This document shows, piece after piece, positions 734-40,658 of a DNA stretch of 64,000 bases (positions within the stretch are counted from its first letter, which is position 1; each line of letters starts with the position of its first letter). The stretch spans positions 32,001 through 96,000 of IMG/VR virus record IMGVR_UViG_3300005663_000028. The stretch is one strand, 5' to 3'. The notes below the pieces were generated by a model that was given only the letters and a program-made list of their open reading frames with translations, was not told the DNA's origin and did no database searches. The position numbers and the translations under genes were made by a program. The DNA comes from a virus.

Positions 734-2837
734 TGCTAAAATTAATGCTGAGTTAAACGACTTGCTTTACGGTGATGAGGGCAGGCTGGGTTATCTATTT
801 CCCTATCGCGATAAGGTTCCTAAGATCAAGGACCATATTTTCACCGATATAAAACAGACAAAGGAAGCGCTGGACAGAATTGTTCTTGGCAAAATGCTCG
901 ATGTTAACTATATTGGTTGGACAGCAAAAGCACTCCTTGGTCTTGACTTGCTTCCTATTCAGATAGCCACACTTCAGATTTTATGGAAGACTCCATTCCC
1001 TATGTTGATTGCTTGTCGTGGTGGTGGTAAAACCTTCTTACTTGCTGTTTATGCAGTTCTTCGCGCACTGCTTGATCCGGGAACTAAGGTTGTTATCGTT
1101 GGTGGTGGTTTGCGACAGGCCAAGTTAGTGTTCAACTACATAGAAACTCTTTGGAATCAATCTTCAATACTTCGGAACATTGTCGGTGGGGGCAAAAAGG
1201 CTGGACCGAGGCAAAACGTAGACCTTTGTTATTTTAAGTTGGGGGAGAGTATTATTTATGCACTCCCCACGGGCGACGGAACGAAAATTCGCGGGTTTCG
1301 TGCAAACGTAGTTATCGCCGATGAATTTGCAGCAATTCAGGAAGAAGTGTTTGATGTTGTTATTCGTGGTTTTGCGGCTACGGCGAAAACACCTATTGAG
1401 GAAGTGAAGAAAGCTGCTTTCGACAAGAAGTTGGCCCAACTAGACTTACCTGCTGATATTAAGAAAAAGTTAATTACTGACGACGGGAAAATGCATGGTA
1501 ACCAAATTATATATTCTGGTACTGCATATTATGCTTTCAACCACTTCTCTAGAAGACATGATATGTGGTGTGATATAATTAGGAGTAAGGGTAATCCAGG
1601 GCGTGTTGCAAAAATTTTTGATGGAGAAAACAATGTTCCAGATGATTTCAATTACAAGGATTATGCAGTAATTAGAATTCCACATACCCATTTACCGGAT
1701 CGTTTCCTGGATCATAGACAACTAGCTAACGCTAAAGCAACTCTTCCTAAAAATCTGTTCTTAATGGAATATGGTGCCGTGTTCATTAAGGATTCTGATG
1801 GATTTTTCCCACGTAGTTTAGTTGAGCAATGTACCGTTGGGCCGAATAAGCCTATCGAAACTCCGGATGGTCCAGTGACATTTTCTCCATTGATGAGGGG
1901 ACGACCTAAGCTAAAGTATGTTATGGGGATTGACCCCGCAGCCGAACGGGATAATCTTGCTATTACAATAACAGAAGTTTGGCCTAATCATTATCGAGTT
2001 GTATATTGTTGGGCTGTTAACAAAAAGGAGTTCTCTGATCGAAAAGAGAGGGGTTTAATTACCGACGATGACTACTATGCATACTGTTGTTCGCGAATTA
2101 GGGAACTTGTAAAGCTGTTCAATCCAGTAAGAATAGAAATGGATAGTCAGGGTGGTGGATATGCTGTTTCAGAAATGCTACGGAACAAAAAACTACTCGA
2201 TAAAGATAAGGGTGATTTCCCAATTTATGAAGTAGTAGACAAGGACGAACCTAAATCTACCGATGGTGAAACGGATGGTCGTCATATTTTACATCTAGTT
2301 AAGCAGAGTTCAGAGTACAACCAGGAAGCCAATATTTGTCTTCATAAAAGTATGGAAACTCAAACACTGCTATTTCCAGCATTTGATAGTGCAAATATGT
2401 ATTCTGCTCTTGAAGCTGAAAAGGCCGCAGGCGTTTCTTTTGATACATATGAAGAAAATGTATTCAATATTGAAGAGTTAAAGAACGAGCTTTGTACCAT
2501 TCAAATGAGTGAAACGGCTACGGGTAGAGAAAAATTCGATACCCCCACGGTTGTTCAAGCCGGAGCAGTAGAGGGTAGGGTTAGAAAGGGTAGGCTTCGA
2601 AAAGATCGTTATACCGCCCTTTTGCTGTCTCACAAATATATTTATGAAACAGATATAGCTCCAGACGATGGTATTGATTACAGTGACGTGGTGGGAAATA
2701 TTGAAAAACGCAGTAAACCGGGGAAAAATGAACCTTTATATAGGGGGCCTGGAGTTGGTAGAATGAGGAATTCCCAATATAGTAGAACTGGCGGGGTGTA
2801 CAAGGCCCTTAAGCGAGGAAATATCATTTCTGGTTAG
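723..2837 (+). CDS. terL: terminase large subunit
   Basis: Walker A ACRGGGKT, Walker B VVIADEF, C-terminal RNase H-like motifs GIDPA and D(S)QGGG, KDRYTA; directly upstream of portal. Confidence 0.9.
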   Translation: MVVNAKINAELNDLLYGDEGRLGYLFPYRDKVPKIKDHIFTDIKQTKEALDRIVLGKMLDVNYIGWTAKALLGLDLLPIQIATLQILWKTPFPMLIACRGGGKTFLLAVYAVLRALLDPGTKVVIVGGGLRQAKLVFNYIETLWNQSSILRNIVGGGKKAGPRQNVDLCYFKLGESIIYALPTGDGTKIRGFRANVVIADEFAAIQEEVFDVVIRGFAATAKTPIEEVKKAAFDKKLAQLDLPADIKKKLITDDGKMHGNQIIYSGTAYYAFNHFSRRHDMWCDIIRSKGNPGRVAKIFDGENNVPDDFNYKDYAVIRIPHTHLPDRFLDHRQLANAKATLPKNLFLMEYGAVFIKDSDGFFPRSLVEQCTVGPNKPIETPDGPVTFSPLMRGRPKLKYVMGIDPAAERDNLAITITEVWPNHYRVVYCWAVNKKEFSDRKERGLITDDDYYAYCCSRIRELVKLFNPVRIEMDSQGGGYAVSEMLRNKKLLDKDKGDFPIYEVVDKDEPKSTDGETDGRHILHLVKQSSEYNQEANICLHKSMETQTLLFPAFDSANMYSALEAEKAAGVSFDTYEENVFNIEELKNELCTIQMSETATGREKFDTPTVVQAGAVEGRVRKGRLRKDRYTALLLSHKYIYETDIAPDDGIDYSDVVGNIEKRSKPGKNEPLYRGPGVGRMRNSQYSRTGGVYKALKRGNIISG

Positions 2838-8616: not shown

Positions 8617-10071
8617 GTGAGACCAGTAAAGATAAATGAGAGTTTGTTGCACGACTTATATGTTCATCTCGAATTGACGGCCAAGGAATGTGCTAAAATT
8701 CTAGGTGTCAGTGATACGTCTATCTGTCGTCGTCTAAAAAAGCTTGGAATACGAGTTAGACCTCCAATTAGGGGGTTGATGACAAATATTAGTGATGACC
8801 AAGTTATTGATCTGTACTGGAATAACAAACTTAGTATTTGTGAAACAGCAAAGAAATTAGGGGTTAGCGAGGGGTGTGTAAAAAAGCGATTAAACAAATC
8901 GGGGAAAGGAACCAGGACTGTTCGGGAGGGCGCAAGACTATGGAGAGGTAGCGATGAAATATTGGATGACCAATTAATACATTTATACGATGTATGTGGT
9001 TGGTCATGCGAAAAAATATCGGCTCACTTCAATAAGAGTTCCCAGTTTACCAGACATAGATTTATAGCAATGGGTAAGGAGCGGAGAAAGAACACTGGGA
9101 AAAATAATGGATCATGGAAAGGTGGAATAAACGATATTGGAAGTGCGGTACGTGGTTGTGCTACTTCATTACAGTGGAGAAAAGACGCATTTTCAAAGCA
9201 GCAATACAAAAGTGAAATTTCCAACCAACAAATTAGAGAATTAAATTGCCACCATATATATCCATTTCACGTTATTTTGCGATCCTCAATAACAAAACAT
9301 ACACCCTTGCCAGACGAATACAGAAGCTTGGCAATTGTCAACGACCCCAGATTCTACGATGGTCAAAACGGCTTGGTTGTATCAAAAGAGGAGCACGACA
9401 ATATCGAGATGGGTAAATTAGATCAAGCACACCCTTGGTGGAAAATTTGGCAAGCCTATCCATCGTTTGCAATTAATCGCAGTGATTTTAATGATATGGA
9501 TTTTGATTTATTTAACGATAAGGGAATGATACGTCCGACCGATTACAGTATTAATATTTCCCCCGTAGGGGACATAAAACACATAATTAGATACGAACAT
9601 TATTTAGGGACCATTCCTGGTTCCAAATTAATACTTGTAGCTAGACAGAAAAGTGTCATTGTCGGAATAGCTACGTTTGGCAAAGGCACCAACAGAAATA
9701 TACCTGATAATACTTGGGAGTTAACCCGTCTCTGTATTCCCTTTTATGTGGTAAGACCATTTGCCTGTGAGTTTTTGGACCGGTGCTATGGCTATATCAG
9801 AGAGAATTACCCCCAGATTAAGGAATTGGTGTCATTTGCAGATTCTTCTGTCGGACACAATGGTGGTATTTACCGAATGGCCAAATGGGCGAAAAACGGA
9901 CAAACACCCCCTAGCTATGCCTATTTTGATCCAGCAACGTTTAAATTGATGCACAAATCAGCTTGTAGAAGAATTAAGGGTGTTGATAAAACCGAACGGG
10001 AATTGGCAGACGAAAGAGGGTGGATTCGCATTCCTCTTACTCACAAGTATAAATATTCACTTATTCTGTAA
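8617..10071 (+). CDS. HTH-repeat + HNH-like + Mom-like (GNAT) fusion protein
   Basis: Three HTH repeats, GKNNGSWKGG (NUMOD-like), NCHHIYPF...NGLVVSKEEH HNH-like core, C-terminal HYLG...TFG...WELTRLC...SFAD...GHNGGIY Mom-like domain. Confidence 0.65.
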   Translation: MRPVKINESLLHDLYVHLELTAKECAKILGVSDTSICRRLKKLGIRVRPPIRGLMTNISDDQVIDLYWNNKLSICETAKKLGVSEGCVKKRLNKSGKGTRTVREGARLWRGSDEILDDQLIHLYDVCGWSCEKISAHFNKSSQFTRHRFIAMGKERRKNTGKNNGSWKGGINDIGSAVRGCATSLQWRKDAFSKQQYKSEISNQQIRELNCHHIYPFHVILRSSITKHTPLPDEYRSLAIVNDPRFYDGQNGLVVSKEEHDNIEMGKLDQAHPWWKIWQAYPSFAINRSDFNDMDFDLFNDKGMIRPTDYSINISPVGDIKHIIRYEHYLGTIPGSKLILVARQKSVIVGIATFGKGTNRNIPDNTWELTRLCIPFYVVRPFACEFLDRCYGYIRENYPQIKELVSFADSSVGHNGGIYRMAKWAKNGQTPPSYAYFDPATFKLMHKSACRRIKGVDKTERELADERGWIRIPLTHKYKYSLIL

Positions 10072-39229: not shown

Positions 39230-39302
39230 GGGGGAGTAGCTCAGTTGGGAGAGCGTTGCCCTTGCAAGGCAAAGGCCGCCGGATCGTAGCCGGTCTCCTC
39301 CA
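39230..39302 (+). tRNA. tRNA-Ala(UGC)
   Basis: GGGGGAG/CTCCTCC acceptor with G3:U70, arm TTGCC-CTTGCAA-GGCAA; T loop ATCGTAG is atypical. Confidence 0.85.
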
Positions 39303-39322
39303 GTTACTCGAAAGGATAGAAA

Positions 39323-39526
39323 ATGTTATCAACAGAAAGAGGTGTTGCACTACAACATTTGTGTGAGCATCGCATTAACGACGCGGATGAATATGGTGCC
39401 GCATTAGAAATGATTGACTTTATAGCGACAGAAGAAAAACTCACCGACGACCAGAAACTGTTTACAGAAACTCTAATATCTATTGTTGATGAGTATGAGG
39501 AAAAACATTATCCTTATGGAAATTAA
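39323..39526 (+). CDS. HigA antitoxin N-terminal-like protein lacking the HTH
   Basis: INDADEYGAALEMID...TLISIVDEYEEKHYP. Confidence 0.65.
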   Translation: MLSTERGVALQHLCEHRINDADEYGAALEMIDFIATEEKLTDDQKLFTETLISIVDEYEEKHYPYGN

Positions 39527-39529
39527 ATT

Positions 39530-39547
39530 GGGTCGATAGCTCAGTAG
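39530..39547 (+). pseudogene. 5' tRNA remnant
   Basis: GGGTCGATAGCTCAGTAG (acceptor 5' strand plus half D arm) running into a TGTATAA motif. Confidence 0.4.
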
Positions 39548-39586
39548 TGTATAAACATATGCACTTACCACAAAATGGTGATATAA

Positions 39587-39769
39587 ATGCACAAAAAAGA
39601 AACTGGAATTCCGTGTTTTGAGTGTGGCAAGCGATCTGGGATAGATTGTCCTGGACGTAGACCAGACGAGGCTACTCGCTGTACTGTGTGTATGGAAGAG
39701 TTTATGGGGCGAATACGTAGAATTTCAGAAAAATATAAAGACTCACTGAAAAGACTAGCTGATTCTTAG
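39587..39769 (+). CDS. zinc-ribbon protein with Doc-partner-antitoxin-like C-terminal helix
   Basis: CFEC...CTVC then MEEFMGRIRRISEKYKDSLKRLADS. Confidence 0.45.
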   Translation: MHKKETGIPCFECGKRSGIDCPGRRPDEATRCTVCMEEFMGRIRRISEKYKDSLKRLADS

Positions 39770-39779
39770 GAGAAAAAAA

Positions 39780-39851
39780 ATGAATAAACAACAGCAATCA
39801 TCCCAATCGAGTAGTCAGCGGCTCAAGAGCCGTCTGGGGTGGATTGTGTAA
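39780..39851 (+). CDS. 23-aa Gln/Ser-rich putative leader peptide (MNKQQQSSQSSSQRLKSRLGWIV)
   Basis: RBS AGGAG; five Gln codons; directly upstream of a terminator and tRNA-Gln. Confidence 0.55.
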   Translation: MNKQQQSSQSSSQRLKSRLGWIV

Positions 39852-39875
39852 ATTCATATATGTGAAAACACACAG

Positions 39876-39909
39876 AACCGGATGGTCCGATAGGGCTGTC
39901 CGGTTTTTT
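39876..39909 (+). terminator. intrinsic terminator upstream of tRNA-Gln
   Basis: AACCGGATGGTCC-GATA-GGGCTGTCCGGTT plus T-run. Confidence 0.75.
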
Positions 39910-39930
39910 ATTTGGAAAGCTTTCCGTTTT

Positions 39931-40002
39931 GGCCCTGTAGTGTAATGGAAACACAATAGTCTTTGAAACTAGAGATTCCTGGTTCGAGCCCAGGCAGGGC
40001 CG
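39931..40002 (+). tRNA. tRNA-Gln(UUG)
   Basis: GGCCCTG/CAGGGCC acceptor, G73, loop CTTTGAA, T arm CCTGG-TTCGAGC-CCAGG. Confidence 0.9.
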
Positions 40003-40014
40003 TTTTTCCTCCTT

Positions 40015-40023
40015 GGTGTATAA
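40015..40023 (+). promoter_or_regulatory. GGTGTATAA motif
   Basis: Exact copy where structural genes resume. Confidence 0.65.
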
Positions 40024-40106
40024 AACAATAGAGATGAATCCATTAAGCCTTCAGTACGCGTGTGCTGGAATCTTTGTGGCCTTATTTGTAAAGAGGAGGT
40101 ATAGTT

Positions 40107-40658
40107 ATGGGTTTAGTAACTGACACATGGGGAGCAAATCGAAATCCAAGTCCAAAACCGTTCACAATGTACAAGACCCTTTCGGTTACGGCTGCATCTG
40201 GGTCGGCAAAAACAGACACGCAGAATTTTTTCAGTAAAAATTGTCCGTTTCCTGTGAAAATCACTAGTTTTGAGGTTCAATGCGTTTCTGTTTCTGGTGC
40301 TGGCTTCAGTGGTAGTGGATCAGCTATGACCGTTGCTTTGCAAAGAGATACGAACGTTGATGCATCTCCAACCGCTCCAGTTACGGCAACATTTAGCAAT
40401 ACTATTTGTACTGTAAACTGCTCTGGTATTGCATCAAGCACAGACAAGAGCTTGTTTAAGGCTCCTTCTAATGCTGGAGACCGGGTTGATGTAGGTCTGG
40501 ATCAGACTTACGTAGCGGTTCCGAAGGGTGGTTCCTTGAGGGCAACACTGTCGGCGCAGGCTAATGATGCAATTGGAGTATCAGGCTCTACCCCTGTTGA
40601 GCTTTTAGCTGTAATAGAATGTGTACCAACAGCAACTTGGGACCAGATATACTTCTAA
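40107..40658 (+). CDS. putative abundant virion decoration protein
   Basis: Ser/Thr/Ala-rich beta protein with own motif, RBS GAGGAGGT and terminator. Confidence 0.5.
   Translation: MGLVTDTWGANRNPSPKPFTMYKTLSVTAASGSAKTDTQNFFSKNCPFPVKITSFEVQCVSVSGAGFSGSGSAMTVALQRDTNVDASPTAPVTATFSNTICTVNCSGIASSTDKSLFKAPSNAGDRVDVGLDQTYVAVPKGGSLRATLSAQANDAIGVSGSTPVELLAVIECVPTATWDQIYF

Follow-up and report, generated by a model that had tools for sequence, protein, structure and literature searches.

We identified, in front of a tRNA gene in the window (the whole 64,000-nt stretch of phage DNA analyzed here), an element that we read as an attenuator of transcription for a phage tRNA operon, of the ribosome-mediated (leader-peptide) kind. 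With no expression data at hand, we put the probability of this reading at roughly 0.7. The analysis established the parts of the element and their conservation, the covariation of hairpin P2 and of the terminator, the mutual exclusion of the alternative folds, and that the space in front of the tRNA is too short for a promoter. In its anatomy the element has all testable features that define leader-peptide attenuators, save that covariation of the antiterminator pairing (2:3) is not firm. The features of the window are listed below in order of position.

39546-39554, plus strand: phage promoter motif AGTGTATAA, which starts the unit of ORF60, leader and terminator
39587-39769, plus strand: ORF60, a 60-aa CxxC...CxxC protein, whose stop codon overlaps the leader Shine-Dalgarno (SD) sequence
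39768-39772, plus strand: SD sequence AGGAG of the leader ORF, 7 nt 5' of the AUG
39780-39851, plus strand: 23-codon leader ORF, stop codon included; start codon, frame and stop position (codon 21 or 24) are conserved
39789-39818, plus strand: putative regulatory codon run QQQSSQSSSQ (codons 4-13); nearly all variants keep Gln or Ser throughout codons 5-13
39795-39805, plus strand: 5' strand of helix P1, inside codons 6-9; in every variant checked, the minimum-energy fold pairs it with 39835-39846
39818-39823, plus strand: segment 1, the 5' strand of P2, starting inside Gln codon 13; its 6 pairs are formed in 11/11 variants
39827-39837, plus strand: segment 2, which is the 3' strand of P2, the start of the 3' strand of P1 and the 5' strand of the antiterminator
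39835-39846, plus strand: 3' strand of P1, partner of 39795-39805
39844-39849, plus strand: 5' strand of P3, the helix inside the antiterminator hairpin; shares bases with P1 and with the stop codon, and pairs with 39870-39875
39870-39875, plus strand: 3' strand of P3
39875-39888, plus strand: segment 3, the 5' arm of the terminator; its part 39878-39888 doubles as the antiterminator's 3' strand
39893-39909, plus strand: segment 4, the 3' arm of the terminator with the U6 tract
39914-39925, plus strand: 12-nt acceptor-stem remnant (GGAAAG/CTTTCC) of a lost tRNA-Ser(UGA) gene
39930-40003, plus strand: tRNA-Gln(UUG), the sole gene left under the putative attenuator in this phage (ARAGORN; Rfam tRNA model, 65 bits)
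40015-40023, plus strand: next promoter motif GGTGTATAA, serving a 183-aa structural-block gene (40107-40658)

Leader ORF, promoters and neighboring genes

The leader ORF (39780-39851) translates as MNKQQQSSQSSSQRLKSRLGWIV, with Gln at codons 4, 5, 6, 9 and 13 (CAA CAG CAA, CAA and CAG) and Ser at codons 7, 8, 10, 11 and 12, making codons 4-13 an unbroken Gln/Ser run. Gln and Ser codons together account for 10.7% of the codons in the genome; from this codon class, ten in succession are expected by chance at about 2e-10 per position. The conserved core of the run, QQSSQSSSQ, written CAR CAR UCA UCC CAR UCN AGU AGU CAR, is itself an event of about 1e-9 per position, and it contains CAR, UCN and AGU codons only, i.e., the families decoded by the three tRNAs of the ancestral operon (see below).

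Using neighboring proteins and degenerate DNA patterns to search for relatives, we found 11 distinct variants of the element (the window, L003, L011, L015/L039, L035, L038, L017, L028, L030, L004 and L034). Nine of these have a free-standing leader ORF with GGAG or GAGGA 7-8 nt 5' of the AUG, and in such leaders SD and AUG are kept both behind the end of ORF60 and behind unrelated upstream DNA. In the remaining two, L004 and L034, the codon run is fused in frame to a longer upstream ORF (ORF60). Across the variants, codons 5-13 show 6 synonymous vs 2 non-synonymous changes (codon 10, in an unpaired stretch, is UCG, UCA or UCC), and codons 15-23 are free to vary in amino acid, their helices being preserved by their nucleotides. 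The stop codon comes three codons earlier in L004 and L030, and the nucleotides 3' of that stop are still conserved. Judged from this pattern, it is the codons that appear to matter, rather than a functional peptide. The SD, the AUG and the synonymous bias are signs that the leader is translated; translation itself is inferred from them. Looking at whether loss of AGU codons tracks loss of tRNA-Ser(GCU), we found a mixed pattern across lineages that gives no conclusion (AGU codons are lost in L004, half lost in L030 and kept in the window, L011 and L017).

The 8-mer GTGTATAA occurs 15 times on the plus strand and 3 times on the minus strand of the genome (179,553 bases, of which the window is bases 32001-96000), nearly always shortly before a gene start, and is read here as the putative phage promoter. 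Sites of the form (T)GGTGTATAA are found at 39546, 40015 and 40730 and at 12 more places in the genome, with a strand bias of 15 (plus) vs 3 (minus); in relatives, GTGCGCA stands just before the motif, directly past the upstream terminator. TGTGTAAAT at 39844 was considered as a promoter inside the leader, since it resembles the phage motif, and was rejected because it is not conserved as such in the relatives. Elsewhere in the window, positions 8617-10071 encode a 484-aa protein with a sigma-70 region-4 helix-turn-helix and a Mom-family domain (Pfam E = 1e-13).

Between the U tract of the terminator and the tRNA-Gln gene there is a gap of 20 nt, into which no promoter fits. The next promoter motif is 3' of the tRNA, so tRNA-Gln cannot be transcribed from the promoter at 40015; with a strong terminator 20 nt upstream and a promoter downstream, its transcription can come only from read-through of the terminator, a conclusion drawn from the sequence itself. 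A sigma-70-like promoter and a 47-aa ORF are inserted between the terminator and the tRNAs in L015/L039, an insert that would bypass the switch.

ORF60 homologues precede the leader in most variants, and L019, L040 and L041 have ORF60 without the leader and without Ser/Gln tRNAs. Neither ORF60 nor the 183-aa gene matched any Pfam or PHROG family. The 5' UTR of the 183-aa gene (40024-40106 in the window) is conserved across the clade (e.g. L001:3915-4000 and L004:3365-3447) and contains GAATC-N6/7-GCCTT twice, on either side of a variable hairpin; this stretch could serve as an operator for translation or stabilize an abundant late mRNA. In another unit, common to L028, L037 (2280-2375) and L042 (2320-2400), the promoter motif is combined with a hairpin (CCAGCC...GGGCTGG) of some 60 nt and with a U7-8 tract. 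In L028 it is found directly before the leader, just upstream of the SD (reverse strand). Possibly this unit encodes a small RNA or acts as a second attenuator.

Alternative RNA structures and the proposed switch

Hairpin 1:2 (P2) pairs 39818-39823 with 39828-39833 (6 bp). It is 100% paired over the 11 variants, and three of its pairs have changes on both sides. P2 is enclosed by the long-range helix P1, one position of which is A-U, A.C or G-C depending on the lineage. The terminator stem (39875-39906) has 14-15 bp and a GAUA loop, its energy is -22.6 kcal/mol, and the U6 tract is at 39904-39909. For P2 and the terminator together, 99.1% of cells in the alignment are paired, with 6 two-sided pair changes, and 0/500 shuffles did as well. 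The region from leader to terminator folds with z = -5.4 against shuffles, and P1/P2 plus the terminator is the minimum-energy fold in all eight variants tested as well as in L035 and L038.

The competing pairing joins segment 2 (GCCGUCUGG, 39829-39837) with segment 3 (CCGGAUGGU, 39878-39886) by 9 bp, three of them G-U. Its duplex energy is -14.9 kcal/mol vs a shuffle mean of -9.0 kcal/mol, with 5 of 500 shuffles as strong. The 2:3 pairing alone is suggestive, not decisive, because the element ranks 5th among the 39 terminator-like hairpins of the genome for upstream complementarity of the terminator arm. The antiterminator is extended by P3, whose pairs are 6/6 in nine variants, 5/6 in L030 and 3/6 in L034 (where gaps block alignment of the rest). 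In the window itself, P1 and P2 are formed (6/6 P2 pairs), and 10/11 antiterminator and 14/14 terminator pairs are present.

We then folded transcripts that were cut before segment 4, with the region under a ribosome stalled on the codon run masked. The 2:3 antiterminator is the predicted fold in 11/11 variants, including the most diverged, L034, and in these folds the 2:3 helix is lengthened to 9-11 bp and joined by P3. The computed domain energies are similar, at -17 to -27 kcal/mol for P1/P2, -13 to -29 kcal/mol for the antiterminator and -16 to -24 kcal/mol for the terminator. Before segment 4 is made, the two states are 0.1-6 kcal/mol apart; afterwards, the terminator state is ahead by 4-15 kcal/mol. 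This predicted balance of energies is what an attenuator decided by kinetics would have. The antiterminator is the thermodynamic optimum even without a ribosome in four variants, so control there would rest on folding kinetics. The stop codon is 3-12 nt 3' of segment 2 and 21-32 nt 5' of the terminator stem; given a ribosome footprint of the size generally known, a ribosome terminating at this stop overlaps segment 2 and leaves the terminator free, and would therefore mask the former and not the latter.

A sequence-only reading of this region had proposed an AGGAG ribosome-binding site followed by a 23-codon ORF with Gln at codons 4, 5, 6, 9 and 13, a hairpin 1:2 starting at the last Gln codon, a terminator 3:4, and a 2:3 pairing of 9 bp with 3 G-U between 39829-39837 and 39878-39886, in mutually exclusive combination as in the trp and his leaders. 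All of these parts are present, segment 1 does start inside the last Gln codon, and the 1:2, 2:3, 3:4 logic is supported by folding, geometry and conservation over the 11 variants; the five Ser codons, P1 and P3 were absent from that reading. It had also named outcomes that would count against it. Contrary to these, the 2:3 helix is competitive in predicted folds once a ribosome is placed on the run, and the leader is conserved in related phages, with SD, AUG and codon run kept through mostly synonymous changes. Covariation, which it had suggested as a check, holds for P2 and the terminator and is weak for 2:3. The antiterminator has 95.6% of cells paired but only a single two-sided change, and 56-151 of 500 shuffles do as well. 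This sole change is in L034, where segments 2 (C to U), 3 (G to A) and 4 (C to U) changed together; the rest of the antiterminator variation consists largely of G-U wobble that would be tolerated in the terminator arm in any case.

From these parts we infer translation of the leader, stalling within it, and read-through that is regulated in response to stalling. Transcription would start from the promoter at 39546 and run through ORF60 into the leader, where a ribosome would load at the leader's own SD. When Gln and Ser codons are decoded fast, the ribosome would reach the stop codon at 39849 and cover the 3' half of segment 2; on its release P1 and P2 would re-form, leaving segment 3 free for segment 4. 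The terminator would then form and RNA polymerase would halt 20 nt short of the tRNA. When charged tRNA-Gln or tRNA-Ser is scarce, the ribosome would stall in codons 4-13 and hold the 5' strands of P1 and P2 apart, and segment 2 would pair with segment 3, lengthened by P3; no terminator would form and the polymerase would enter the tRNA gene(s). The outcome would be negative feedback, with slow decoding of these codons switching on the genes of their cognate tRNAs, such that the phage tops up precisely those tRNAs whose decoding has slowed. Probably, then, the phage makes these tRNAs only when ribosomes decode Gln/Ser codons slowly. Possible triggers would include codon-usage mismatch, breakdown of host tRNA in infection, and tRNA-cleaving defense nucleases.

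RNA ligase Rnl1 of phage T4 repairs tRNA cut by an anticodon nuclease. A T4 Rnl1-type RNA ligase gene (PF09511) is found in this genome outside the window (G000:C1:165744-166313, minus strand), by the second tRNA cluster, and the same ligase adjoins the present tRNA island, among the upstream genes, in L034, L035, L037, L039, L041 and L042. This circumstantial observation fits exposure to tRNA damage and does not show it; nothing else seen here speaks for the anticodon-nuclease attack that the sequence-only reading had offered as an example of a trigger.

tRNA genes and distribution of the element

The tRNA-Gln(UUG) that had been placed after the terminator was confirmed at 39930-40003, and in the relatives it is part of a larger block. 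The module order in L028, L035 and L034 is leader, terminator, tRNA-Ser(UGA), tRNA-Ser(GCU), tRNA-Gln(UUG), promoter and 183-aa gene, and in L038 tRNA-Ser(ACU) takes the second place instead of tRNA-Ser(GCU). The site of the 12-nt remnant in the window holds a whole long-arm tRNA (5' GGAAAG or GGAAGA, with the 3' complement) in L003, L028, L035 and L038. The window has lost both tRNA-Ser genes, and its genome is without any tRNA-Ser. The state of the block in the other lineages is as follows.

L003, L011, L030, L039: the same long-arm Ser-type tRNAs, some decaying; tRNA-Gln present
L004: tRNA-Ser remnants only; tRNA-Gln present
Window: tRNA-Ser as the 12-nt remnant; tRNA-Gln present
L017: tRNA-Ser remnant only; tRNA-Gln absent (leader and terminator intact, with no tRNA behind them)

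The claim of a Gln-sensing attenuator is supported and has to be widened: the Gln codons and the tRNA-Gln are there, but the sensing would not be of Gln only, the ancestral leader being a Gln+Ser one in front of a tRNA-Ser/Ser/Gln operon. The comparison supports the view that the window is a reduced version of this operon, with only tRNA-Gln surviving. As the operon has shrunk to tRNA-Gln and no tRNA-Ser is left, the Ser codons in the window's leader would be a vestige that still reports on host tRNA-Ser.

The two tRNA-Ser genes that follow the attenuator are of an unusual type: the variable arm is long, the acceptor stem has 8 bp and the T stem 4 bp. They are below the Rfam tRNA threshold and reach 33-36 bits with the tRNA-Sec model (cut-off value: 47). 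We located them at L028:2507-2591 and 2645-2732 (both minus strand), L035:2106-2314, L034:1425-1599 and L038:1442-1521. The anticodon of the second tRNA-Ser in L038, ACU, is cognate to the AGU codons of the leader. Other RNA genes seen in the relatives include a tRNA-Tyr with anticodon AUA, i.e., with an unusual A34 (ARAGORN; L037:659-742 and L042:951-1034), and a full tmRNA gene (L030:14072-14421, minus strand; Rfam 120 bits, E = 2e-46).

Apart from the 11 leader-bearing lineages, we found 13 related phages without the element; all relatives are uncultured and about 120-180 kb in size, those bearing the element about 160-180 kb. tRNA-Gln is found downstream in 10/11 leader-bearing lineages, and at this locus all 13 leaderless relatives lack Ser and Gln tRNAs. 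Conversely, the leader is found only where Ser/Gln tRNAs or their remnants occur, and no comparably enriched small ORF precedes any of about 30 other tRNA clusters (in the genome and five related loci). In this clade the attenuator design is confined to the Ser/Ser/Gln block. All variants derive from one ancestor; the match between leader and tRNAs therefore counts as one evolutionary event, not many.

Searching with a looser leader pattern gave no further variants. Two matches from the metagenome scan (L010 and L014) turned out on inspection to be chance matches, and three matches in bacterial genomes (L031-L033) were set aside, their number being equal to the chance expectation; these three loci were not inspected individually. 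Searches of the region with blastn against public phage records gave no matches, and neither did a search for the exact tRNA-Gln sequence in IMG/VR. For the terminase, identity to any cultured phage is 27% at most. Three DNA runs of one marine-sediment study contain the stretch, and none of the listed runs with this sequence is recorded as RNA. Using cmscan on 39300-40200 (E up to 10), we found tRNA only, with no T-box, no glutamine riboswitch (glnA RNA, Downstream-peptide motif) and no known sRNA.

Other explanations and comparison with known attenuators

Could this simply be an ordinary gene end, that is, a small or chance ORF and the terminator of ORF60 with constitutive leaky read-through, the match of Gln/Ser codons to the tRNAs being coincidental? 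A terminator followed directly by a promoter is the default layout here in the leaderless relatives, L017 does carry leader and terminator without any tRNA, and covariation of the antiterminator is weak. Coincidence would nevertheless have to supply nine or ten consecutive codons from a 10.7% class in exact match to three tRNAs, at this locus and at none of the approximately 30 other tRNA clusters, and restrict the leader to the company of Ser/Gln tRNAs or their remnants. Moreover, the C-terminal half of the peptide is not conserved as a protein, and P2 covaries without being needed by a plain terminator. We regard an ordinary gene end as unlikely on these grounds. A relic is more doubtful still: the switch would be ancestral and now decaying in this phage, the tRNA-Ser genes gone and termination unregulated. 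Loss or decay of tRNA-Ser in the window, L004, L011, L017 and L030, and a genome without tRNA-Ser, would agree with that; decay is not what is seen in the window's element, which retains SD, AUG and all ten codons of the run, P1, P2 (6/6), the antiterminator (10/11) and the terminator (14/14), along with a tRNA-Gln of 65 bits.

The least probable of the alternatives, in our judgment, is that P1/P2 and the terminator form a non-coding RNA or the binding site of a termination-setting factor, protein or RNA (like TRAP or PyrR, or a small regulatory RNA that ends at the terminator), with an incidental ORF. An incidental ORF would hardly have its SD and AUG at fixed spacing in differing contexts, synonymous changes in the unpaired part of its run, or a run in frame with a longer upstream ORF in L004 and L034, and no Rfam family, T-box or glutamine riboswitch matched. 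On the other hand, the nucleotides of the element are more conserved than the flanks, the domain is strongly structured (z = -5.4), and L015 gives up a Gln codon (CAA to AAG) where the P1 pair becomes G-C.

The leader-peptide reading has well-known precedents. Leader-peptide attenuators control amino-acid biosynthetic operons of Proteobacteria (trpL, hisL, pheL and leuL, and the multivalent thrL and ilvL). As in trp/his-type leaders, the phage element has a short SD-led ORF with a regulatory codon run, a 1:2 hairpin overlapping the ORF, a predicted 2:3 antiterminator set against a 3:4 intrinsic terminator, and a stop codon placed so that the terminating ribosome would block segment 2; as in thr and ilv, two amino acids would be sensed together. 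Unlike in the amino-acid operons, the regulated genes here are tRNA genes, not enzyme genes, and therefore signal and product belong to one class of molecule, the former being charged-tRNA supply and the latter tRNA. The phage element further differs from those leaders in being viral, in the extra long-range P1 around 1:2, and in showing no sequence similarity to them.

Aminoacyl-tRNA synthetase genes can also be controlled in this way, as in pheST (pheM) of Escherichia coli. A leader with His codons precedes hisS paralogues in bacilli (PMC2965389). In the pheST and hisS leaders, as proposed for the phage, stalling at cognate codons controls a component of translation and not a biosynthetic enzyme; unlike the phage element, which would control the tRNA gene itself, they control the charging enzyme. 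T-box riboswitches are similar in that competition between terminator and antiterminator reports tRNA status by transcription attenuation, but the T-box binds uncharged tRNA directly and translation is not needed; the phage element has no specifier loop or T-box sequence and matched no such model (E up to 10). In the literature searched, leader-peptide control was described only for amino-acid operons and synthetase genes, with none on tRNA genes or in phages. The mechanism is thus a known one, and we could not find its application to tRNA genes described.

Somewhat less firmly than the attenuator itself, we hold it probable that these phages keep their own tRNA genes under a trp-like stalling attenuator, its leader spelled with the codons that the tRNAs past the terminator decode, with tRNA supply feeding back directly on transcription of the tRNA genes. 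The element is about 130 nt long and self-contained, and is easily moved into a reporter. What phages need tRNA genes for, and how they express them, are old questions; under debate are compensation for codon usage, replacement of lost host tRNA and escape from anticodon nucleases (e.g. PMC10264068, PMC11464382). If our reading is true, the phage monitors how fast chosen codons are decoded and produces tRNA on demand only, which would favor rescue of failing decoding over constitutive supplementation. Leader-peptide attenuation, a textbook mechanism in amino-acid operons and in a few genes for synthetases, would in that case also apply to tRNA genes and occur in viruses.
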